From: Paludibacter sp.
GTDB taxonomy: Bacteria; Bacteroidota; Bacteroidia; Bacteroidales; Paludibacteraceae
Direction of reading: 5' to 3'
Assembly (NCBI GenBank): GCA_031292575.1
Contig: JARLGX010000008.1
Location: forward strand, 88,028 to 152,027
Length of the DNA stretch: 64,000 bases
Shown: piece by piece, positions 2,486 through 24,180 of the stretch
Numbering within the stretch: position 1 is the stretch's first letter
Layout: the number at the start of each line of letters is the position of its first letter
Notes under the pieces: model-generated
What the model was told of the DNA's origin: nothing
What the model saw: the letters and a program-made list of their open reading frames with translations, nothing else
Databases searched by the model: none
Program-made: the position numbers and the translations under genes

Positions 2486-2644
2486 AATTAAGCTTTAGAT
2501 TTAAAATGCTTTATAAAAAAACGGAACAAATATATAAATTTATTTTGTGTTAACAAACATATGATTTAAAATAATGAATCTACCTATGAAAAAATAAAAA
2601 GTGGATACCTTACAAAGGCATCCACTTCTAACATAAATCATTTG

Positions 2645-2717
2645 AGCGGCAAACGGGACTCGAACCCGCGACCCTCAGCTTGGGAAGCTGATGCTCTACC
2701 AACTGAGCTACTGCCGC
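2645..2717 (-). tRNA. tRNA-Gly (anticodon CCC)
   Basis: The reverse complement GCGGCAGTAGCTCAGTTGGTAGAGCATCAGCTTCCCAAGCTGAGGGTCGCGGGTTCGAGTCCCGTTTGCCGCT folds as a cloverleaf. It has a 7-bp acceptor stem, anticodon stem TCAGC/GCTGA, loop TTCCCAA and a GGTTCGAGTCC T-arm. CCA is not encoded. Confidence 0.93.
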
Positions 2718-2868: not shown

Positions 2869-4701
2869 TTAATAATTTACTTCATTTTTCTTAGATGCTG
2901 ATTTCATCAATTCAGCGGGTTTTTGCTCAAGTAGCGGTACTAAAGTATAATCCCACGTTTCTTCAAATTCCCAATTGGCCATCAAAGTTAGTTTTTTAGG
3001 ATAATAATAAACCTCCTCAGGTTGGCGATGTGTTGCCAAATCGCCTGTATCCCACTTACCATTTCCATTTTCGTCAATAAACATTCGAACATAATAATCA
3101 CCTGGCTTTAAATATTCAAATACTGTTCCTTTTTCCGAGGCCGGTTTTGTAGCAAGCAATACATCTTTCGAATCGAGAACTTGTAACATTACCTTAGGAT
3201 TAAATGTTGCTAAATATATTTTTACACTCGAATATTCATCAAGTGATTTGACTTTGAAACTTCCTTCTATCTTTTTGCTAGCTTTATTATAAATACTTGT
3301 AAATGCCGCCGAATCAATTTCCAACTTATATTCCATTTCAGGCACCCACTTATAGTTAATGGCAAAAGTCATGTGTATAGAATCAAGCCTTTGCCACTTA
3401 AAAGGGATTTGTTTATAGGTGGAATCAATCTTTTGACTTAATTTAATTTTTGAAATATCCTCATTTGCTAGTGGCGCCTCAAAAGTTAATATAATTGGAC
3501 TATAAATCTCAAACGAGGACGTTATATTATTAGCAAATTTCAGTGATTCTAGTTTTTTTAATTGCGCTTTTTTTATCTTTAATTTGGCATTTAAATTTAC
3601 TTTTCGCATGGATACATTTATTGTATCGGTAACAGGTTGAAGCTGAAAAAGCGAATCAGTTTTTAAGTAAGTCATCGACATTTTCAGTGTATCAGTTTTC
3701 CATACTGTTGAATCGGTAATCCAATACGTCAGACTATCCATTGCCAAATTCTTCTGTAAAACGTATTTATTGTCCCAATTAAAGTTAAGCGGTTTTAATT
3801 CTGGCAGTTTTGAAAGTGTAGTATTAAAATATAAATCGAAAACAAATGGTTCTTTGCGCTCTGCCTTTACAAAATACTGCCTCTTTTTATTTTCTTTAAA
3901 AAAACGAAGGGCTAAATTATCCGGTAAGAAATGTGTTCCCATATATGTATGCACACTGTCTACATGAGTTGAATCTTTCCAAACGGTATCTCTCATTTGC
4001 TCTAATTTTGAGGTTGGAGATATTAGTGAATCACACAAAGCTAATCCTTCGCCGGGTTGAAAATAAAAATCGTGATTTGTATCGCCCAAAGCATAGACTT
4101 TGTATTTACCCTTTTTTATATTATTAATTGAAAAGTGACCTTTGTCATCCGTTCTTCCGATGCGTAAAAATGGTTTTTTATAAAATACCGAATCTGACTT
4201 TTCGCTGTAAATTCCAACAATAATTCCTGCCAAAGGATTTAAATCCTCGGCGTTAATAACAGTTCCCGCTATTTTTAATGTATCAATCTGGTTACCGGTT
4301 GAGAAAGAAAAAAGATAGTTTTTTAAAACATTTTTTTCATTTAAATCTACTATCCCATCACCAAAACTCACTGAATAGGTGGTACTATCAAGTAAATCTT
4401 GATTAAAGTTAACTGTAACTTTTTTCCCGAATGCTTTAACATCGGGTTGCTTAGACTGCGGTGGCGAAATTATTACATTATCATTTGGCTTTTCGATTGA
4501 AACCATTTTATTAAAATCAATTTCAATTTGTTTTTTCTTGAAATTGAGAGCTCCATTATTCGGAAAAGATTTCATTACCTTAGGTGGTGTTGTATCTTTC
4601 GGACCGCCGGTTGGTCCCTGAGCTTTATTGGCGCAGGAATAAACCAAAAACGAAATGCCGCTTATAACAATAAATAATTTTATCTTAGTTTTTATCTTCA
4701 T
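2869..4701 (-). CDS. Ig-like (Big_5/SbsA-type) domain lipoprotein with a DUF2141-like C-terminus; unusually rich in the D-(S/T)-(A/I/L/V/M/T) O-glycosylation sequon
   Basis: 610-aa ORF with a lipobox (FLVYSC). The N-terminal PPKVMKSFPNNGALNF... segment resembles Big_5 Ig-like domains, and the C-terminal GDYYVRMFIDENGNGKWDTGD resembles DUF2141. It is the last gene of a tightly packed four-gene operon. Confidence 0.65.
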   Translation of the reverse strand: MKIKTKIKLFIVISGISFLVYSCANKAQGPTGGPKDTTPPKVMKSFPNNGALNFKKKQIEIDFNKMVSIEKPNDNVIISPPQSKQPDVKAFGKKVTVNFNQDLLDSTTYSVSFGDGIVDLNEKNVLKNYLFSFSTGNQIDTLKIAGTVINAEDLNPLAGIIVGIYSEKSDSVFYKKPFLRIGRTDDKGHFSINNIKKGKYKVYALGDTNHDFYFQPGEGLALCDSLISPTSKLEQMRDTVWKDSTHVDSVHTYMGTHFLPDNLALRFFKENKKRQYFVKAERKEPFVFDLYFNTTLSKLPELKPLNFNWDNKYVLQKNLAMDSLTYWITDSTVWKTDTLKMSMTYLKTDSLFQLQPVTDTINVSMRKVNLNAKLKIKKAQLKKLESLKFANNITSSFEIYSPIILTFEAPLANEDISKIKLSQKIDSTYKQIPFKWQRLDSIHMTFAINYKWVPEMEYKLEIDSAAFTSIYNKASKKIEGSFKVKSLDEYSSVKIYLATFNPKVMLQVLDSKDVLLATKPASEKGTVFEYLKPGDYYVRMFIDENGNGKWDTGDLATHRQPEEVYYYPKKLTLMANWEFEETWDYTLVPLLEQKPAELMKSASKKNEVNY

Positions 4702-4722
4702 AATTCTATATTATTGCGAGAA

Positions 4723-5991
4723 TTATTGTAATGTCAGAACCTTATGCCCGATTCTGCATCGTAAGCATTTTTTTTCATCACAATATTGTTTTTTTAATTG
4801 TAACAGAGCCTGCGAATCGTAAGCACTTTCTACTTTTAATTCCATATTTCTCCATCCGGATACGATTGCATTATGCTCAGCAGGAACCTGTTCTAAAATT
4901 TGTAAGGCTTTGTCCTTCAGTTCATCATTTTTCTTTTTATGGGCAAAACTAAATAAAAATGGAACTACAGTATTTATTAAGATACCATTTATTGACTGGT
5001 TACCAAGTCTCTTTATATGCAACGAACTTTCATGTGCGAATTGATATCTTGTATTCCAGTAACCAGTCAGTTCGCAAACAAAAAGCGCTCTTAGATAATC
5101 AAGATTTGGATTATCAACAATTTTAGAAAACAATTTACTTGATGTATGAATTAATGACGCAAATTGAGCAATTCGTATGTGTGGAAAGTTATCTGGTCGT
5201 AATCGTAATAGTTTCCATTGCGTTTTATCAATTGGAATTAAATTATATTTTGAACTTAGAAAATCATATTCTTTTTTTAATTGTGCTGAATATTCATCGT
5301 GATTTTCTAAACTCAGCAAACCGGCCTGACCAAACAACAAAGCTTCCAATTGAAGCAGTTGATCTTTATGTTTTCCTAAAATAGAAACCGGTAAGGATTT
5401 CGCCAAACTTTCAAAAGCCTGACTATTTGTTCCGAAACCAAAATTTCTAGCTAATGTAATATAAAACGCTTCTTCCCAATGTTGTTTATTTTCGTTCAAT
5501 AAATTTTCAATTGCTTTCATTTTTTGCTCTAAACGCTCAGTGAGCAAAGCACATTTCCAGCTCTGAATAAAAATTAATGGAACTAAGCCAATTTTATCAG
5601 CACACGCAATCCATTTTTGCTGACTAAGAAGTTGATCGTAATTCGTTTCGATTTTCGTAGAAAACTTCAATTCAAGCTGCGGAATTTTTGTTCCGTCAAT
5701 TCTATAAATATCTTCATCTACAATTGCGACAACATGTAGAATTGTACTATCATAGGCTTTGTCAGAATGATGATTATGCTTCTTCCAATCCGAAGAGTGG
5801 GTATGAATCTCTACGTTGCCTGCCCATAATGTACCTCCAATTTTTATTTTAGCATTAAAAAAATCAGGTCCGGCATCTGTATTAATCCTGCCAACATCAA
5901 TAACTTCTACTTGTTCACCATCCATTGTTTCGAGGTCGTACGAAGTAAAAAGTTTGTTTTGCCAAACGTAATGTAGGATGGACTCTTTCAT
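4723..5991 (-). CDS. DUF2851 family protein
   Basis: 422-aa ORF. The N-terminal ILHYVWQNKLF...DAGPDFFNAKIKI...WAGNVEIHTHSSDWKKHNHH...ILHVV pattern is the hallmark of DUF2851. Confidence 0.8.
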   Translation of the reverse strand: MKESILHYVWQNKLFTSYDLETMDGEQVEVIDVGRINTDAGPDFFNAKIKIGGTLWAGNVEIHTHSSDWKKHNHHSDKAYDSTILHVVAIVDEDIYRIDGTKIPQLELKFSTKIETNYDQLLSQQKWIACADKIGLVPLIFIQSWKCALLTERLEQKMKAIENLLNENKQHWEEAFYITLARNFGFGTNSQAFESLAKSLPVSILGKHKDQLLQLEALLFGQAGLLSLENHDEYSAQLKKEYDFLSSKYNLIPIDKTQWKLLRLRPDNFPHIRIAQFASLIHTSSKLFSKIVDNPNLDYLRALFVCELTGYWNTRYQFAHESSLHIKRLGNQSINGILINTVVPFLFSFAHKKKNDELKDKALQILEQVPAEHNAIVSGWRNMELKVESAYDSQALLQLKKQYCDEKKCLRCRIGHKVLTLQ

Positions 5992-6015
5992 TAGGCGTAA
6001 GTAAAAGGAGTTAGC

Positions 6016-6621
6016 TCAAAGTACATCAAAAGTAAAACCTTGACTATTCCAATATTCAATGGCTAAAGGCAAGACATACAACATATTGTTTTTTGCCTTG
6101 ATTGAATCGTGAAAAACAACAATTGAACCATTTCGGGAAAAATGTTTAATGTTATTAAAGATTGATTCTTTTGACAAGTTCTGATTATAATCGTGGGTAA
6201 TTAAATCCCACATTACAATATCATATTTAGATTGTAGCTTTTTACGTTGACCTCTTTTTATTTGCCCGTAAGGAGGACGAAATAATTTACTATCAATGTA
6301 TTGCGCAGCTTTCTCTATATTAGCAACATACTCCTCGTTCGTGACAGATAACCCTTTTAAATGATTGAAAGTATGGTTCCCTGTTTTATGCCCTCTTTTT
6401 ATCATTTCAGCATAAATATCAGGATGCTTTTGTACATTTTCTCCAACACAGAAGAAAGTTGCTTTCACATTAAATTTATCAAGTAAATCTAAAACACGAG
6501 GTGTCACTTCTGGCACCGGTCCATCATCAAAAGTGACATAAATCACTTTTGATGATGGATTTTTGCGCCAAATGAGCTTTCCTAAAAAAGGACGTATTAT
6601 ATCTGGAAACCGAACATTCAT
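6016..6621 (-). CDS. Polysaccharide deacetylase (CE4 / NodB homology domain) protein, no signal peptide
   Basis: 201-aa ORF with the TFDDGP motif and the HTFNH His motif. Its ATG abuts the stop codon of the upstream DUF2723 gene. Confidence 0.85.
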   Translation of the reverse strand: MNVRFPDIIRPFLGKLIWRKNPSSKVIYVTFDDGPVPEVTPRVLDLLDKFNVKATFFCVGENVQKHPDIYAEMIKRGHKTGNHTFNHLKGLSVTNEEYVANIEKAAQYIDSKLFRPPYGQIKRGQRKKLQSKYDIVMWDLITHDYNQNLSKESIFNNIKHFSRNGSIVVFHDSIKAKNNMLYVLPLAIEYWNSQGFTFDVL

Positions 6622-9600
6622 TTACATTTGTATTCGTTTGGTATAATCTATATAACGTGGCATGTATTTGTTCATTATGGTTTTCTGTTTGTCCTGATCG
6701 CAAATACGTAATATCTGGTTCAAAACGGCCATATCGTGCCCAATTCGGTTTGAAACACTGTTGCGTTGATCTGTATCTAAACTCAAATACCAGTCCAAAG
6801 ACTCAACACAATCTTTTGCAACAGCATCCATAATGGCATCTCCCTTGGCTGGTTGGTGTAATTTATAATAAGCATCAGCCAATTGCGTTGAAATATAATC
6901 ATGACGAACTGTTGTTCCCGGAATTACTTTATTACAATAATCCAAAGCCTTTTCAGCTCTCACAGTATCACCTTTAGCCATTAGAGCCCCAATTAATTGT
7001 GCAAACATCATGCGATGAGTGTGGCACATATGCGAGGTATTTTCATCCAAATATACTTTCGGATCAGCAATATTTCCATATTTGAATTTGTACATCATGT
7101 TATTGTACATTTCATCCACATTTACGCTTGGTCCAGCTCCTTTTACTCCAATCGGCAAAATTTGATATGCTAACCCTGTTAATTCAAAATGATCACTAAG
7201 TCCTAAATAATAATCATCGCCAACAGTTACTGCAAAATAAATTGGACGTTTCCATTTGTTTTCACTCAACAAATCAATGATCATCATCTCGCTTTTTGTA
7301 AGTCTCCGTTTTACATTAATATCTATTTGAGGAATAATTTCGGAAGCTCTTGTTATAGGCAAAGTCCCTGTTTTCACCACTTCTTGTGCATCAATTGGGA
7401 TGAACAATTGTTTTGTTGGAATAAATGGTTCTCCATTTATTTTTGTTTGCGGATCGGAGCTCAACATGAAATTAAAGGCAGTTTGAACTTCAAGTTTAGG
7501 TAACATTGAATCAACCTCAACCACCTCATTTTTACCTGCTGCATAATCTTCGGGTTTCCACGAAATTGGAAGTGGAGCCGATTTATATGCACCTCGTTGC
7601 ATTTGTCCTATATACCAGTCTGTTTGTAAATAACTCAGATTACAAACCCGAAGGTCAGTACCAACGCCTTCCACTTCCTGATTATACCAAAGCGGGAAAG
7701 TATCATTATCTCCATTGGAAAAAATAATTGCATTGGGTTTACATGAAAGCAGATAATTTGCCCCAAAATCGCGACAAGTATAACGGTTACTACGATCGTG
7801 ATCGTCCCAGTTTTGTTCGGCCATTAATGCCGGAACTCCCAAACAGAATAATGTCACAACAGCTGCTGCAGCAGTTTTTGGTATTTTTGGCGCATATTTT
7901 TCTACTCCTTTTATTATACCCAAAACTCCAAAACCTATCCAGATACAAAAAGCGTAGAACGAACCTGCATAGGCATAATCCCGTTCACGTGGCTGATAAG
8001 GAGTCTGATTGAGATAAACTACAATGGCAAGACCAGTCATCAAAAACAACAGGGTAATAAGCCAAAATCCTTCAACGCCATGTTTTCCTCCATTAATTAA
8101 GAAAACCATGCCCAATATTCCCAACAACAATGGTAACATGTAGTAGACATTATGTCCTTTATTCTCTTTGAGTTCCGAAGGTAAATTCTTTTGATTACCG
8201 ACCAGCATATTGTCAATAAATCCAATGCCTGTAATCCAGTTTCCATGATCAATTTCACCATAGCCCTGCATATCATTTTGGCGGCCACTGAAATTCCACA
8301 TAAAGTAGCGCAAATACATGAAATTAATTTGATAGTCGAGGAAGAAACGCATATTTTCAAAAAACGTAGGCTTCACGTCACTTCTTTGTTGGCCGCAATA
8401 ATCATAATTTATTGTTTCTCCCGTTATTTTTCCCCAGGCTTTATAGGCTTCTATATGAGAAGGTGTTGTGCTGTACATTCTGGGGAAAAACATATTAAAC
8501 CTATCGTCCATTACATAATCGGTTTGATAACCCGAAATGATGTATTCATCTTTATCGTTTGCCGATTTCTTGTATTTCTGCACGTAAGTTGGATCACCTT
8601 TCTTTTGTTCGGGGACACACATGTTACCTTCCACTTTGAGTTTAACCGGTGCATCATAAACCGCTCCGTAAAGCAAAGGCGTTGATCCGTATTGTTCGCG
8701 GTCGAGGTAATATTTAAGTGAGAATACATTATCGGGGTTATTCTGATCCATGGTAGGATTGGCATTTGAACGGATAACAATGACCGCATACGATGAAAAG
8801 CCAATAAGAATCATCAATATCATAAGCAATGAAGTATTAATCCAGCGTGGATTAATTTTCCCTTTTTTGAAATAAAAGAATGCTGCCAATCCCGCAATAA
8901 TGAGAATACCTAAAATTATGTTTTCGCTAAAAAATGGCAAGCCTTCCATGCTGATTGCCAAAACGAAAGAAATAGCTATTCTTAAAAAACTTTTTTTAGT
9001 ATACGATTCATAAATTCCCCAAATAATAAATCCAAGTGTCAGAATTATATATGCTAAAACTCCCGAATTAAATTCAAAACCAAGTACATTGACAAACAGG
9101 AGTTCAAACCAACCCGACACTTCCAAAAATCCTGGGATTAAACCATATAAAACTGTTCCTAAAAGAACTATCCCAACAAGCAGGGAAATAAGAACACCTT
9201 TGACCGAAGGAGTATATTTTTTGAAATAATACACCATTACCAAAGCAGGGATGGTTAGCAGATTGAGCAAGTGAACTCCAATGGATAATCCCATCATATA
9301 GGCAATAAAAATCAACCAACGATCAGAGCCCGGTTCATCGGCATGTTCTTCCCATTTGAGGATAAGCCAAAAAACCAATGCAGTGAATAAGGCTGAAAAA
9401 CCGTAAACTTCAGCTTCAACTGCCGAGAACCAAAAAGTATCAGAAAAAGTATAAGCCATTGCCCCAACTATTCCGGCACCCAAAATTCCAATAATGTTTT
9501 TGGTATTATAATCATCATCAGTTTTAATTATAATTTTGCGGGCTAAATGTGTGATAGTCCAAAACAAGAACATGATAGTAAATGCACTACACAAAGCAGT

Positions 9601-9843
9601 CAACGAGTTAACCATGATAGCCACGTGGCTTGTATCTTTTGCGAACAAAGAGAATAAATGGCCAAAAAGCATGGATAAAGGAGCTCCAGGAGGATGACCA
9701 ACGTCTAATTTAAATGCACTTGAGATAAACTCAGGGCAATCCCAAAAGCTGGCGGTTGGCTCCATGGTAAGCAAATACGTAGCTGCTGCAATAGCAAAAG
9801 CGACCCACCCGAAGATGTTGTTCAAAGATTTGAATCGTTTCAT
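6622..9843 (-). CDS. DUF2723 / TMEM260-like GT-C fold glycosyltransferase, paralogue A
   Basis: 1073-aa ORF. The N-terminal part has many TM helices and an acidic first-loop motif (FWDCPEF). A large C-terminal soluble domain has TPR-like helices (DTVRAEKALDYCNKVI...). The family was recognised from the conserved N-terminus MKRF..LNNIFGWVAFAIAAATYLLTMEPTASFWD. Confidence 0.8.
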   Translation of the reverse strand: MKRFKSLNNIFGWVAFAIAAATYLLTMEPTASFWDCPEFISSAFKLDVGHPPGAPLSMLFGHLFSLFAKDTSHVAIMVNSLTALCSAFTIMFLFWTITHLARKIIIKTDDDYNTKNIIGILGAGIVGAMAYTFSDTFWFSAVEAEVYGFSALFTALVFWLILKWEEHADEPGSDRWLIFIAYMMGLSIGVHLLNLLTIPALVMVYYFKKYTPSVKGVLISLLVGIVLLGTVLYGLIPGFLEVSGWFELLFVNVLGFEFNSGVLAYIILTLGFIIWGIYESYTKKSFLRIAISFVLAISMEGLPFFSENIILGILIIAGLAAFFYFKKGKINPRWINTSLLMILMILIGFSSYAVIVIRSNANPTMDQNNPDNVFSLKYYLDREQYGSTPLLYGAVYDAPVKLKVEGNMCVPEQKKGDPTYVQKYKKSANDKDEYIISGYQTDYVMDDRFNMFFPRMYSTTPSHIEAYKAWGKITGETINYDYCGQQRSDVKPTFFENMRFFLDYQINFMYLRYFMWNFSGRQNDMQGYGEIDHGNWITGIGFIDNMLVGNQKNLPSELKENKGHNVYYMLPLLLGILGMVFLINGGKHGVEGFWLITLLFLMTGLAIVVYLNQTPYQPRERDYAYAGSFYAFCIWIGFGVLGIIKGVEKYAPKIPKTAAAAVVTLFCLGVPALMAEQNWDDHDRSNRYTCRDFGANYLLSCKPNAIIFSNGDNDTFPLWYNQEVEGVGTDLRVCNLSYLQTDWYIGQMQRGAYKSAPLPISWKPEDYAAGKNEVVEVDSMLPKLEVQTAFNFMLSSDPQTKINGEPFIPTKQLFIPIDAQEVVKTGTLPITRASEIIPQIDINVKRRLTKSEMMIIDLLSENKWKRPIYFAVTVGDDYYLGLSDHFELTGLAYQILPIGVKGAGPSVNVDEMYNNMMYKFKYGNIADPKVYLDENTSHMCHTHRMMFAQLIGALMAKGDTVRAEKALDYCNKVIPGTTVRHDYISTQLADAYYKLHQPAKGDAIMDAVAKDCVESLDWYLSLDTDQRNSVSNRIGHDMAVLNQILRICDQDKQKTIMNKYMPRYIDYTKRIQM

Positions 9844-10160: not shown

Positions 10161-10201
10161 TGAAAACAGTCACAATAATCGAAATTGAATTATTGTGACT
10201 G
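10161..10201 (-). terminator. Hairpin terminator of DUF2723 paralogue B
   Basis: 13-bp perfect stem CAGTCACAATAAT/ATTATTGTGACTG, followed by a T-run on the minus strand. It separates the two paralogues into distinct transcription units. Confidence 0.65.
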
Positions 10202-10246
10202 TAAGAATTATGTTCCATCTATAAGGTGAAACAACTAAAACCCTGA

Positions 10247-13200
10247 TTACATCTGGAATCTTTTAGTATATTCCAAGTAATGAGGCATATATTTATCAAT
10301 GATTGTTTTTTGTTTTGCCTGATCGCAATCATGTAAAACCTCATACAAAATGGAGAAGTTCTGACTAATTTCATTGGCACTGTTGTTCATTTGATTTTTA
10401 TCCAACGTTAAGAACCAATCCAGGTATTCAACGCAATCTTTTGCCACAGCATCCATAATGGCATTGCCTTTGGCATATTCGTGCACCCGGTAATATGAAA
10501 TAGCCAACCGCGTGGAGAAATAATCGTACCGAACTGTTGTACCCGGAATTACTTTGGCACAATAATCCAACGCCTTTTTAGCGCGAACGGTATCACCTTT
10601 ATCAATCAATGCACTTATTAAATATGAAAACATCATTCGGTGTGTTTGGCACATATTCAACGTATTTTCGTCCAAATAGACTTTTGAATCAGCAATATTT
10701 CCATATTTGAATTTATGCATCATGTTATTATACATTTCGTCGGTATTAACTCCGGGTCCAGCCCCTTTTGCGCCGACGGGTAAAATTTGATAAACCATGC
10801 CTGTCCGTTCAAAATGATCGGTTAATCCCAAATAATTTCCACCTATTGAAACTGCGAAATAAATTGGACGTTTCCAGTGATTCTCTTTTAGCATTTCAAG
10901 TATCATCAAATCACTTCTGGTGACATTATTTTTTAAATTAACATCAATTTGAGATAGAATTTCTGATGCACGCGACATTGGCAATGTCCCAGACTTTAAT
11001 ACTTCCTGATCATTCACAGGTAAATACAAATGATTTGTCGGAATAAATGATCCTCCATGTATCTTAGTTTGAGGATCGGAACTCAAAATAAAGTTCATTG
11101 CCGTTTTTAAATCAAGCTTTGGTATTAGAGAATCTACATCGACCACCTGATTTTTATCGGCAGCATAATCCGACGGTTTCCACGATATAGGCAGTGGAGC
11201 CGATTGGTACGCACCACGTTGCATTTGACCTATATACCAGTCGGCTTGCAGGTAACTCAGGTTGCACACCCGTTTATCCGTTCCTACTCCTTCTACTTCC
11301 TGGTTATACCAAAGTGGAAAAGTATCGTTATCGCCATTACAAAAGATAATGGCATTGGGTTTACAGGACAGCAAGTAGTTAGCACCAAAGTCGCGGCAAG
11401 TATATCGGTTACTACGGTCATGATCATCCCAGTTTTGTTGTGCCATTAACATCGGAACACCTAAACTAACGAGAGTCACCACAGCAGCAACAGCCGTTTT
11501 TGGCATTTTGGGAAGATACTTGTCTACAGCTTTTATTATACCCAAAACGCCAAAACCTATCCAGATACAAAAAGCGTAGAACGAACCGGCGTAAGCATAA
11601 TCACGTTCGCGCGGCTGATAGGGTGTTTGGTTCAGATAAACTACAATGGCTATGCCGGTCATTAAAAACAGCAAAAATACCAGCCAAAAGCCTTCGACTC
11701 CATGTTTACCCCCGTACAGCAAGAACATTATGCCTATAAAGCCTAACAATAAAGGCAGCATATAATAGGTGTTGTGTCCTTTATTGATTTTAAGAGCAGT
11801 AGGTAAATTCTTTTGGTTTCCAACCAGTAGGTTGTCAATAAACCCGATACCGGTAATCCAGTTTCCATGATCTATTTCGCCATTACCCTGAATGTCGTTT
11901 TGCCGGCCGCTAAAGTTCCACATAAAATAACGCCAGTACATGAAATTAATCTGATACTTGAAGAAGAAGCGCATATTTTCACTGAAAGTGGGTTTTATAT
12001 CGCTTCTCTGCTGACCGCAATAATCGTAGTTTACCATTTCGCCGGTAATATTCCCCCACGACTTGTAAGCGTCTATTTGAGCTTTAGTTACCCCGGGTGT
12101 GTAATACATACGCGGAAAAAACATATTGAAACGCTCGTCCATCACATAATGAGCATTTTCGTCGGATGTAATGTACGAGTCTTTTTGCGATGCCGAAGTT
12201 TTAGGTTTTTGTATATAGAGTGGTCCATCCTTTTCTTGATCCGGGACATACATATTCCCATCCACTTTCCATTTCACGGGAGCATCATATACAGCTCCGT
12301 AAAGCAAAGGCGTTGATCCGTATTGTTCGCGGTCGAGGTAATATTTAAGGGAGAATACATTATCGGGGTTATTCTGATCCATGGTAGGATTGGCATTTGA
12401 ACGGATAACAATGACCGCATACGACGAAAAACCAATCAAAATCATTGAAACCATCATCAACGACGTATTTATCCAGCGAGCACTGATCTTTCCTCTCCTG
12501 TAATAAAAGAATGCTGTCAGTCCGGCAATAAGCAGAATGCCCAAAAAGATGTTTTCGCTAAAAAAAGGCAAGCCTTCCATGCTGATTGCCACGATAAACG
12601 AAATAGCTATGCGAATAAAGCTTTTATTTGTGTACGATTCGTAAATACCCCAAATCAGGAATCCGATTGTCAGCACGATGTAGACAAACAAACCCGAGTT
12701 AAATTCAAAACCAAGTACATTGACAAACAAAAGTTCGAACCATCCTGATACTTCCAGAAAGCCTGGTATTAACCCATATAAAACAGTGGCAAGAAGAACG
12801 ATGCCCAACACCAGCGCAACAAGAATCCCTTTAAACGAAGGAGTATATTTTTTGAAATAATACACCATTACCAAAGCAGGGATGGTTAGCAGATTGAGCA
12901 AGTGGACCCCAATGGATAATCCCATCATATAGGCAATAAAAATCAACCAACGATCTGAGCCCGGTTCATCGGCATGTTCTTCCCATTTGAGGATAAGCCA
13001 GAAAACCAATGCCGTGAACAGGGCTGAAAAACCGTAAACTTCAGCTTCAACTGCCGAAAACCAAAAAGTATCAGAAAAAGTATAAGCCATTGCCCCAACT
13101 ATTCCGGCACCCAGCATGGCTATTGTGTTTTTAGTAGAATAATCGCTGTACGATTTAATTACAATCTTGCGGGCTAAATGTGTGATAGTCCAAAACAAGA

Positions 13201-13474
13201 ACATGATAGTAAATGCACTACACAAAGCAGTCAACGAGTTAACCATGATAGCCACGTGGCTTGTATCTTTTGCGAATAAAGAGAATAAATGGCCAAAAAG
13301 CATGGATAAAGGAGCTCCCGGAGGATGGCCAACGTCTAATTTAAATGCGCTTGAGATAAACTCAGGGCAATCCCAAAAGCTGGCGGTTGGCTCCATGGTA
13401 AGCAAATACGTAGCTGCTGCAATAGCAAAAGCGACCCATCCGAAGATGTTGTTCAATAGTTTAAATCGTTTCAT
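10247..13474 (-). CDS. DUF2723 / TMEM260-like GT-C fold glycosyltransferase, paralogue B
   Basis: 1075-aa ORF collinear with paralogue A. The first ~103 aa are identical apart from two substitutions near the N-terminus, and the rest is similar by eye but clearly diverged. Confidence 0.8.
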   Translation of the reverse strand: MKRFKLLNNIFGWVAFAIAAATYLLTMEPTASFWDCPEFISSAFKLDVGHPPGAPLSMLFGHLFSLFAKDTSHVAIMVNSLTALCSAFTIMFLFWTITHLARKIVIKSYSDYSTKNTIAMLGAGIVGAMAYTFSDTFWFSAVEAEVYGFSALFTALVFWLILKWEEHADEPGSDRWLIFIAYMMGLSIGVHLLNLLTIPALVMVYYFKKYTPSFKGILVALVLGIVLLATVLYGLIPGFLEVSGWFELLFVNVLGFEFNSGLFVYIVLTIGFLIWGIYESYTNKSFIRIAISFIVAISMEGLPFFSENIFLGILLIAGLTAFFYYRRGKISARWINTSLMMVSMILIGFSSYAVIVIRSNANPTMDQNNPDNVFSLKYYLDREQYGSTPLLYGAVYDAPVKWKVDGNMYVPDQEKDGPLYIQKPKTSASQKDSYITSDENAHYVMDERFNMFFPRMYYTPGVTKAQIDAYKSWGNITGEMVNYDYCGQQRSDIKPTFSENMRFFFKYQINFMYWRYFMWNFSGRQNDIQGNGEIDHGNWITGIGFIDNLLVGNQKNLPTALKINKGHNTYYMLPLLLGFIGIMFLLYGGKHGVEGFWLVFLLFLMTGIAIVVYLNQTPYQPRERDYAYAGSFYAFCIWIGFGVLGIIKAVDKYLPKMPKTAVAAVVTLVSLGVPMLMAQQNWDDHDRSNRYTCRDFGANYLLSCKPNAIIFCNGDNDTFPLWYNQEVEGVGTDKRVCNLSYLQADWYIGQMQRGAYQSAPLPISWKPSDYAADKNQVVDVDSLIPKLDLKTAMNFILSSDPQTKIHGGSFIPTNHLYLPVNDQEVLKSGTLPMSRASEILSQIDVNLKNNVTRSDLMILEMLKENHWKRPIYFAVSIGGNYLGLTDHFERTGMVYQILPVGAKGAGPGVNTDEMYNNMMHKFKYGNIADSKVYLDENTLNMCQTHRMMFSYLISALIDKGDTVRAKKALDYCAKVIPGTTVRYDYFSTRLAISYYRVHEYAKGNAIMDAVAKDCVEYLDWFLTLDKNQMNNSANEISQNFSILYEVLHDCDQAKQKTIIDKYMPHYLEYTKRFQM

Positions 13475-23271: not shown

Positions 23272-24180
23272 ATGGAATCAATTTCTTCGTTTGCCGAACT
23301 GACAGCACATCTGAAAAGCGTGAATTGCCGTAAACGCATGGCTGTTGCCAATGCAGTTGATTCGCACACATTGGATGCTGTGCTGAGAGCCGTTGATATG
23401 GGTATTATCGAAGCATTTCTTATCGGAGATGTTGCCTCAATTGAATCTCCTCATTTGTTCGAGCATAATCTTTCTCCTTTTGTACATATTATAGATATAC
23501 CTGAAGTTCAAATAGCTACACTTGAGGCTGTAAGGATGGTAAAATCCGGTGAAGCAGATATTCTGATGAAAGGCCTTGTAAATACTGATGTATTACTGAG
23601 GGCAATTTTAGACAAAGAAAAAGGAATATTACCCCTCGGAAGGGTACTTACTTTCAATGCAGCCATGGAAGTACCTAAATATCATAAATTGATTTTCTTT
23701 TCCGATCCCGTGGTGATTCCTTCTCCCAATCTGATTCAACGGACAGCCATGATAAAGTATGCTATCGAAACCGCCTTTAAATTTGGAATTACAAAACCCA
23801 AAATTGCGTTGATACATGCCACCGAAGTTGCGAACCCTAAAATTCATTATATGCAGGATTATCTGGATATTATGCAAATGTGGCGTAACGGGGAATTTGG
23901 CAATGTAATTATGGACGGACCATTAGATATATTTCTTGCACTTGATAAAGAACGAGGAAGTATAAAAAATGTTCCAAGCCCGGTTTTGGGAGATGCTGAC
24001 ATTCTTATTTTTCCAAACTTTGAATGCGCAAACACTTTCTACAAAGGATTATCACTTTTTGCCGATGCCGAGATGGGCGGATTACTTCAGGGAACTGAAA
24101 AACCGGTTGTCCTAACTTCCCGAAGTGAAAGTGTTCAATCAAAGTTTTACAGTATTGCTATGGCTTGTATATTAAGCTGA
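23272..24180 (+). CDS. ptb: Phosphate butyryltransferase / phosphate acyltransferase
   Basis: 302-aa ORF matching the PTA_PTB family pattern (ADILMKGLVNTD, KPKIALIHATE, LIFPNFECANTFYK). Confidence 0.8.
   Translation: MESISSFAELTAHLKSVNCRKRMAVANAVDSHTLDAVLRAVDMGIIEAFLIGDVASIESPHLFEHNLSPFVHIIDIPEVQIATLEAVRMVKSGEADILMKGLVNTDVLLRAILDKEKGILPLGRVLTFNAAMEVPKYHKLIFFSDPVVIPSPNLIQRTAMIKYAIETAFKFGITKPKIALIHATEVANPKIHYMQDYLDIMQMWRNGEFGNVIMDGPLDIFLALDKERGSIKNVPSPVLGDADILIFPNFECANTFYKGLSLFADAEMGGLLQGTEKPVVLTSRSESVQSKFYSIAMACILS

Follow-up and report, generated by a model that had tools for sequence, protein, structure and literature searches.

The lipoprotein gene that closes a four-gene minus-strand block in a Paludibacter sp. 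genome (contig JARLGX010000008.1, positions 88,028 to 152,027; these 64,000 nt are called the window) encodes what is probably an extreme client of the general O-glycosylation system of Bacteroidota. The protein belongs to the PG0081/'Big_5 domain' family. The three genes upstream of it encode a DUF2723/TMEM260-like GT-C glycosyltransferase, a CE4 deacetylase and a DUF2851 protein. The adjacency with DUF2723 is probably a lineage-specific arrangement and not the mark of a dedicated pair. An earlier note on this DNA had read the block as an operon for an enzyme, its own hyper-glycosylated substrate with immunoglobulin-like (Ig-like) domains, and a glycan-modifying deacetylase.

According to the favoured reading, the lipoprotein would consist of a lipid anchor and a row of Ig-like beta domains that probably face the periplasm. 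Its approximately 15 positionally conserved D-(S/T)-hydrophobic (D-(S/T)-Φ) sites would be glycosylated by the phylum-wide general machinery, by extension from orthologues in which such sites were identified by mass spectrometry (MS). The adjacency would represent at most co-expression of envelope genes, and DUF2723 would not thereby be identified as the dedicated enzyme of the lipoprotein.

Sequon excess in the lipoprotein

A regular-expression search for D[ST][AILVMT] detects 16 sites in the lipoprotein, with the Asp residues at positions 36, 105, 140, 170, 224, 238, 243, 248, 322, 330, 337, 349, 359, 426, 440, and 463. The resulting list is identical to the 16 tripeptides given in the earlier note, and its five comparator counts for exported proteins of the window (1, 3, 3, 3, and 4) were reproduced. 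From composition 1.95 sites are expected, an 8-fold excess. None of 20,000 shuffles reached 16 sites (mean 1.9, standard deviation 1.3) and the Poisson p-value is 3.5e-10. Ser or Thr follows 19 of the 39 Asp residues, and each of the control motifs E[ST]Φ and N[ST]Φ is found a single time. The remaining open reading frames (ORFs) of the window that are at least 150 aa long contain, pooled, 52 sites vs 46 expected. The lipoprotein is thus an outlier in sequon density, as had been claimed. An example of a peptide with the sequon is GIYSEKSDSVFYK.

The lipobox (LVYS↓C) has a Cys23 that is invariant in the alignments, which places the lipoprotein among exported proteins. Its sequence, with a lipid anchor at the N-terminus and no acidic signal for surface export behind the Cys, suggests that it is probably tethered facing the periplasm. 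The AlphaFold2 (AF2) model has a predicted local distance difference test score (pLDDT) of 68, is all-beta, and resembles strings of Ig-like domains. Foldseek searches with the full-length model returned generic Ig-like strings only (S-layer SbsC/Sap, alpha-2-macroglobulin MG domains) at TM-scores of 0.10-0.16. At the C-terminus, Pfam detects a weak DUF2141 match besides Big_5.

Conservation of sequon positions

An exhaustive profile search with the lipoprotein resulted in 3,103 clusters (50% identity) at E <= 1e-30. The best 150 of these (33-61% identity) have 10-29 sites each, with a median of 15 vs 2.3 expected; for the E and N control motifs the mean is about 1. In the same 150 homologues 39% of Asp residues are followed by Ser or Thr, compared with 13.6% in the background. 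At the position behind D[ST] the order of preference is L > I > A > V > T, and the published third-position preference of the sequon resembles this ranking (PMC12871550).

A set of 120 close homologues of the lipoprotein possesses 13-16 sites each. The homologue search by direct similarity reached close relatives only (at least 67% identity for the lipoprotein and at least 70% for DUF2723). In 76 full-length orthologues from 80 species genomes, 13-32 sites are found regardless of DUF2723 linkage. Nearly all sequon Asp residues are invariant or almost so (alignments A1-A3). Sequon density is therefore a family-wide trait with conserved positions.

The orthologue from a horse-faeces Paludibacteraceae metagenome-assembled genome (MAG; L079:10001-12160) is 727 aa long and contains 32 strict sequons, twice the family median.

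Glycosylation of orthologues

Three members of the family have been detected as glycoproteins. In Prevotella intermedia, 7 sites were identified in BWX39_01155, which the study names as one of the three proteins with the heaviest glycosylation; a single O-glycan was found in that species, and BWX39_01155 carries this same general glycan (PMC10897501). Three of its glycopeptides align to the window lipoprotein above shuffled controls (z = 13.6, 6.7, and 4.8). With the constant offset set by these aligned anchors, the P. intermedia glycosites 176, 329, 337, 344, 356, and 366 correspond to S171, S323, S331, T338, S350, and T360 of the window lipoprotein. In Tannerella forsythia, Tanf_02405 (Big_5, 71.6 kDa) also has 7 identified sites (PMC8550257).

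In Porphyromonas gingivalis, PGN_2028/PG0081 (74.4 kDa) has 17 predicted sites, the highest number among the tabulated lipoproteins (the runner-up has 8), and one glycopeptide was identified (PMC8729774). The gene was recovered from a metagenome contig with a degenerate DNA pattern built on this glycopeptide. The recovered product (661 aa, 74.3 kDa) contains the glycopeptide and 17 strict sequons vs 2.4 expected, and is 33% identical to the window lipoprotein over the full length (E = 2e-116). Another P. gingivalis protein with many glycopeptides, PGN_1735, was rejected as the orthologue: its peptides align no better than shuffled ones (z <= 1.4).

The lipoprotein is thus exceptionally rich in sequons, as the earlier note had observed, and its orthologues have been found glycosylated at homologous positions (PMC10897501, PMC8550257, PMC8729774). 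The P. intermedia orthologue bears the only general glycan of its species, on the general motif, which makes a dedicated enzyme unnecessary.

It is hardly credible that the tripeptides are instead a structural feature of beta domains (e.g. Asp caps at strand starts) and not glycosylation sites. Many of them do lie at loop-to-strand junctions in the AF2 model, as such a feature might. Six homologous positions are nonetheless glycosylated in P. intermedia by MS, together with 1 site in P. gingivalis and 7 in T. forsythia. In addition, the E and N control motifs are not enriched, and the preference at the third position is that of the glycosylation motif.

In 2007 PG0081 was listed as one of three proteins that nearly all Bacteroidetes and Chlorobi have in common, and Fibrobacter has it as well (PMC1887533). 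The signature listing is in Table 7 of that paper, and the associated P. gingivalis locus is L082:4054-6039. If D-(S/T)-Φ sites were kept in the Chlorobi and Fibrobacter orthologues, this would hint at the same glycosylation system outside Bacteroidota.

Gene neighbourhood of the lipoprotein

With the 15-sequence lipoprotein alignment A3, 80 species-level loci were fetched, the window proteins were mapped onto them, and the neighbouring ORFs were clustered. DUF2723, CE4, DUF2851, and the lipoprotein occur in this order in 29 of the 80 loci, all of them in the Paludibacter clade (lipoprotein identity 46-71%); in a few of these, extra ORFs lie between CE4 and DUF2851. No DUF2723 is present in the other 51 loci within the flanks fetched. 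Of the other Bacteroidales loci, 39 extend 6 kb or more upstream; DUF2723 was detected in none of these (0/39), CE4 in 6 and DUF2851 in 13. The four-gene linkage, which the earlier note proposed to look for across relatives, thus fails outside the Paludibacter clade, an outcome that the note itself had named as refuting its reading.

Across Bacteroidales, the commonest upstream neighbour of the lipoprotein gene is DUF2851, which is directly upstream in 42 of the 80 loci. DUF3108 is directly downstream in 28. Outside Paludibacter no downstream neighbour is commoner than this DUF3108 gene (Pfam E = 5e-32; L036, L038, L041-L052, L056-L081), and the P. intermedia DUF3108 protein BWX39_01190 is itself glycosylated (PMC10897501). 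In Bacteroides and Phocaeicola a GH3-family gene lies upstream of the lipoprotein gene; BWX39_01150, upstream in P. intermedia, is likewise annotated as GH3 (PMC10897501). Other Paludibacteraceae possess either ROK kinase-CE4-lipoprotein-PnuC or CE4-DUF2851-lipoprotein, with no DUF2723 nearby in the ROK arrangement. In P. gingivalis the neighbours of the lipoprotein gene look unrelated (by ORF reading, a release factor, a purM-like protein, and a LysM glucosaminidase). The locus-tag numbers of the DUF2723 genes PGN_0192 (P. gingivalis), BWX39_09045 (P. intermedia), and Tanf_01470 (T. forsythia) place each of them at a good distance from the lipoprotein gene of its species, and the fetched P. 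gingivalis locus agrees with this.

One locus of the set (L060, CAVJTV010000001.1) is labelled 'Desulfovibrionaceae bacterium' and contains a Parabacteroides-type DapB-DUF2851-lipoprotein arrangement. It is probably a mis-binned or contaminating contig.

The block decomposes in a nested way, which suggests that (CE4-)DUF2851-lipoprotein is the widespread core and DUF2723 a Paludibacter-clade addition. Beyond this clade, the neighbours that CE4 keeps are the lipoprotein and DUF2851 genes, not DUF2723. The older and wider core would then be (CE4-)DUF2851-lipoprotein(-DUF3108), and DUF2723 probably joined its 5' end in the Paludibacter clade.

A dedicated three-part system, in which one DUF2723 paralogue specifically glycosylates the Ig-domain lipoprotein and CE4 edits the glycan, is very unlikely. 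Its genes are tightly packed (the gaps of 0, 24, and 21 nt given in the earlier note are correct, and the CE4 ATG directly abuts the DUF2723 stop codon), the block is kept in 29 Paludibacter-clade genomes, and TMEM260 acts on Ig-like IPT domains (PMC10214176). However, orthologues with 13-32 sequons are found in the 51 genomes without DUF2723 in the flanks fetched, 39 of which include 6 kb or more upstream of the lipoprotein gene. The P. intermedia and T. forsythia orthologues are glycosylated with DUF2723 encoded elsewhere in the genome by locus tag, the former with the only general glycan of its species, and the sites obey the general sequon. The CE4 protein has no signal peptide, and in other Paludibacteraceae it accompanies the ROK kinase and lipoprotein genes with no DUF2723 nearby. 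An operon for a dedicated enzyme, substrate, and deacetylase is thus unsupported, given the clade-limited linkage, the general glycan and sequon, and a deacetylase without a signal peptide. Because DUF2723 adjoins the lipoprotein gene only in the Paludibacter lineage, a dedicated enzyme-substrate pair is not shown.

Several points weigh against the favoured reading of the lipoprotein as a client of the general system with a lineage-specific neighbour. The block persists across the 29 intact loci with variable flanks, and in most of them the DUF2723 stop abuts the CE4 start. The unit therefore appears to be maintained in the Paludibacter clade, which could reflect a functional link. The sequon ranking covers 64 kb of the MAG, the window, and three other species. 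Both the glycosylation and the membrane localisation of the Paludibacter lipoprotein itself are inferred.

CE4 deacetylase and DUF2851 protein

The CE4 protein matches PDB 2c1g (E = 9e-31), as well as PgdA- and NodB-type NCBIfam models, all under their cut-offs. The NodB motifs TFDDGP and HTFNH are intact in the translation. No signal peptide was detected in either the CE4 or the DUF2851 protein, and no solved-structure relative of DUF2851 was found.

Lipid A is known to be modified by systems that combine a GT-C enzyme and a deacetylase. DUF2723 and CE4 could accordingly form a pair like ArnT/ArnD or LgmB/LgmC, with the lipoprotein unrelated. CE4 would deacetylate a polyprenyl-phosphate-linked N-acetylhexosamine at the cytoplasmic face, and the GT-C protein would move the amino sugar to lipid A, lipopolysaccharide, or another envelope glycan. 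Such a pair is unlikely. It would fit the abutting stop and start codons, here and in most of the 29 clade loci, and a deacetylase with intact NodB motifs and no signal peptide. The GT-C protein, however, is not of the ArnT family but belongs to GT117, the sole characterised member of which glycosylates protein. No GT2 polyprenyl-phosphate sugar synthase or flippase was recognised among the ORFs adjoining the cluster, as read from their translations (the profile scan covered six proteins). Outside the clade, moreover, the partners of CE4 are the lipoprotein and DUF2851 genes and not DUF2723.

DUF2723 as a candidate transferase

The DUF2723 protein was described in the earlier note as a relative of TMEM260, and it is a genuine GT117 family member with conserved catalytic residues. 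PF11028 scores 259.4 bits in the protein of the block and 256.8 bits in its upstream paralogue (cut-off 24.2). Human TMEM260 (PDB 9rql) is matched at E = 1e-11 (phmmer). According to a cryo-electron microscopy preprint, the donor mannose of TMEM260 is contacted by D52 and H67, and D441 serves as catalytic base (bioRxiv 10.64898/2026.03.17.711096). D35 and H50 of the DUF2723 protein align with D52 and H67 and have the same 15-residue spacing. D712 (motif NGDND) aligns with D441 (RGD) in the stretch 677-750 vs 406-479; this correspondence is tentative because the stretch scores low (10.9 bits, i-Evalue 0.62). D35, H50, and D712 are invariant in 31 orthologues, as are G711, N713, and D714.

A hydropathy scan of the DUF2723 protein suggests approximately 15 hydrophobic segments. 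The AF2 model (pLDDT 72.5, predicted TM-score 0.66) has a helical membrane core followed by a beta-rich periplasmic insert (about 390-490) and four more helices. The C-terminal part consists of an alpha/beta domain around D712 and a helical domain (909-1072), in which Pfam detects only TPR_19 at E = 0.26. The top Foldseek matches of the model are PglB, AftA, AftB, ALG12, ArnT, AglB, and a GPI-transamidase subunit U chain, all of them weak (E 1e-3 to 0.3, TM-scores 0.23-0.32). TMEM260 is not among these matches; the sequence match to 9rql stands. The Pfam scan found PF11028 only, with no Wzy_C or O-antigen-ligase-type domain in either DUF2723 protein. Judging from sequence, the DUF2723 protein is most likely a sugar transferase from a polyprenyl-phosphate donor to periplasmic Ser/Thr.

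DUF2723-annotated inner-membrane proteins of about 124 kDa were detected in P. gingivalis (PGN_0192; PMC8729774), P. intermedia (BWX39_09045; PMC10897501), and T. forsythia (Tanf_01470; PMC8550257). Positions 823 and 844 of the P. intermedia orthologue carry glycans, as does one site each in those of P. gingivalis and T. forsythia. The window protein has two sequons past its last hydrophobic segment, at 778 (DSM) and 959 (DTV).

It is possible, though doubtful, that DUF2723 (GT117) is the missing initiating transferase of general Bacteroidota O-glycosylation, with many periplasmic D-(S/T)-Φ clients. The enzyme would transfer the reducing-end hexose (mannose) from a polyprenyl-phosphate donor, and its co-transcription with the densest client in Paludibacter would be incidental. 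Its homology to a protein O-mannosyltransferase argues for this, with D35, H50, and D712 matching D52, H67, and D441, as does the GT-C fold, for which the peptide-glycosylating PglB is the best structural match. The modelled alpha/beta and C-terminal helical domains, which come after the last transmembrane helix, parallel the palm and fingers of TMEM260. However, DUF2723 is also present in phyla without known D-(S/T)-Φ glycosylation, and its linkage to the client gene is confined to one clade. Most species have a hexose, probably mannose, at the reducing end, and a 2025 review proposes seeking homologues of eukaryotic O-mannosylation enzymes; the same review states that the Tannerella species studied lack the common core glycan, a point against a single general enzyme of this kind (PMC12871550). 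There is also a competing GT-C protein, the P. gingivalis inner-membrane PGN_1968 ('YfhO/PMT family glycosyltransferase', 94.6 kDa; PMC8729774). GT117 remains a candidate because its catalytic site is conserved and because it is present in the three species with oral glycoproteomes, not because of the locus, which supports DUF2723 as the general transferase only weakly.

The earlier note remarked that the transferase for the Bacteroidota sequon had not been firmly assigned, and the 2025 review still describes it as undiscovered (PMC12871550). No paper linking DUF2723 or GT117 to Bacteroidota glycosylation was found in the full-text literature searched.

Locus layout and transcription context

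The ORF list places the four minus-strand genes exactly at the coordinates given in the earlier note (Table 1). DUF2723 is tandemly duplicated in this genome: the two paralogues are 81% identical as proteins, and the corresponding DNA repeat is 69-77% identical and starts exactly at the stop codon. Within the flanks fetched, a second DUF2723 copy was found in none of the 29 Paludibacter-clade loci.

Table 1. Features of the locus, in coordinates of the window
Feature	Coordinates	Strand	Details
DUF2723/TMEM260-like (GT117) GT-C glycosyltransferase gene	6622..9843	-	1073 aa; PF11028 E = 2e-77
CE4 (NodB-type) deacetylase gene	6016..6621	-	201 aa; Polysacc_deac_1 E = 4e-31
DUF2851 gene	4723..5991	-	422 aa; PF11013 E = 3e-151
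PG0081/'Big_5 domain' family lipoprotein gene	2869..4701	-	610 aa; Big_5 E = 2e-22
Upstream DUF2723/TMEM260-like GT-C paralogue	10247..13474	-	1075 aa; PF11028 E = 1.3e-76
Terminator-like hairpin between the two DUF2723 genes	10166..10202	-	15-bp stem, then T-run
tRNA-Gly(CCC) gene	2644..2717	-	ARAGORN; Rfam RF00005 at 70 bits
Terminator-like hairpin 3' of the tRNA-Gly gene	2597..2629	-	15-bp stem, then T-run

The promoter and terminator scans were overall at chance level, and only the two long hairpins are cited, as suggestive. The hairpin between the paralogues suggests that the four downstream genes are transcribed apart from the upstream DUF2723 gene. Past this hairpin, approximately 145 nt upstream of the ATG of the downstream DUF2723 gene, the sequence TATCTTTG at 9994-9987 (-) fits TAnnTTTG, the Bacteroides-type -7 promoter element. 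It is consistent with a promoter of its own for the four-gene unit.

At the other end, the tRNA-Gly(CCC) gene lies 151 nt 3' of the lipoprotein stop on the same strand, with the 15-bp-stem hairpin beyond. From this order, the four-gene unit may read through into the tRNA gene.

In many of the 29 Paludibacter-clade loci a 303-aa gene is found upstream of the block on the opposite strand. Its homologue in the window is at 23272-24180 (+), and this displacement implies a rearrangement or an insertion of about 13 kb here.

Significance

The general O-glycosylation system is important for the fitness of Bacteroidota in the gut and the mouth. The solid part of the present results is that the PG0081/Big_5 family has approximately 15 positionally conserved glycosites across Bacteroidales, with MS support in three species. 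A lipoprotein of this family is a ready-made, sensitive multi-site reporter for candidate transferases. If DUF2723 were the general initiating enzyme, the Paludibacter operon with its duplicated gene would couple the enzyme to its densest client.

Heavy glycosylation of the PG0081 family is already published, as one main-text line and in supplementary tables. What is added here is new but incremental: site positions conserved across the family, the link of the window lipoprotein to PG0081, and a Paludibacter operon in which the GT117 gene is duplicated. The idea of GT117 as the general transferase is plausible and, as far as the literature searched goes, unpublished.

Comparison with known systems

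The closest known counterparts are the PG0081-family lipoproteins of P. gingivalis, P. intermedia, and T. forsythia, which share the architecture of the window protein, have approximately 15-17 sequons, and have mapped sites at matching positions. For P. intermedia and T. forsythia, it is proven that the general O-glycosylation system modifies the orthologue at several sites. In these oral species the gene is not beside DUF2723, whereas in Paludibacter it closes the DUF2723-CE4-DUF2851 block.

Human TMEM260 (CAZy GT117), a protein O-mannosyltransferase acting on IPT domains, shares PF11028, the GT-C core, and the conserved donor-site Asp and His with the bacterial DUF2723 protein. Both have a luminal or periplasmic alpha/beta domain with an aligned catalytic Asp (D712 vs D441) and a helical C-terminal domain. 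The bacterial protein differs in being approximately 370 residues longer, with about 15 hydrophobic segments vs 11, and in possessing a beta-rich periplasmic insert of about 200 residues (360-560). Its C-terminal helices are not recognisable as TPR by Pfam (E = 0.26).

PglL/PilO and PglB are likewise periplasmic enzymes that glycosylate proteins from lipid-linked donors, and PglB is the best Foldseek match of the DUF2723 model (E = 1e-3). However, Pfam detects no Wzy_C or PglL-type domain in DUF2723, PglB is an N-linking STT3 enzyme, and the structural similarity between PglB and DUF2723 is at the general GT-C level only.

In ArnT/ArnD and LgmB/LgmC, as in Paludibacter, the gene for a GT-C enzyme adjoins a gene of the polysaccharide-deacetylase family whose product has no signal peptide. 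The Paludibacter pair differs from them in that its GT-C protein is of another family, no GT2 synthase gene was seen adjoining it, and the pairing is found in one clade only.

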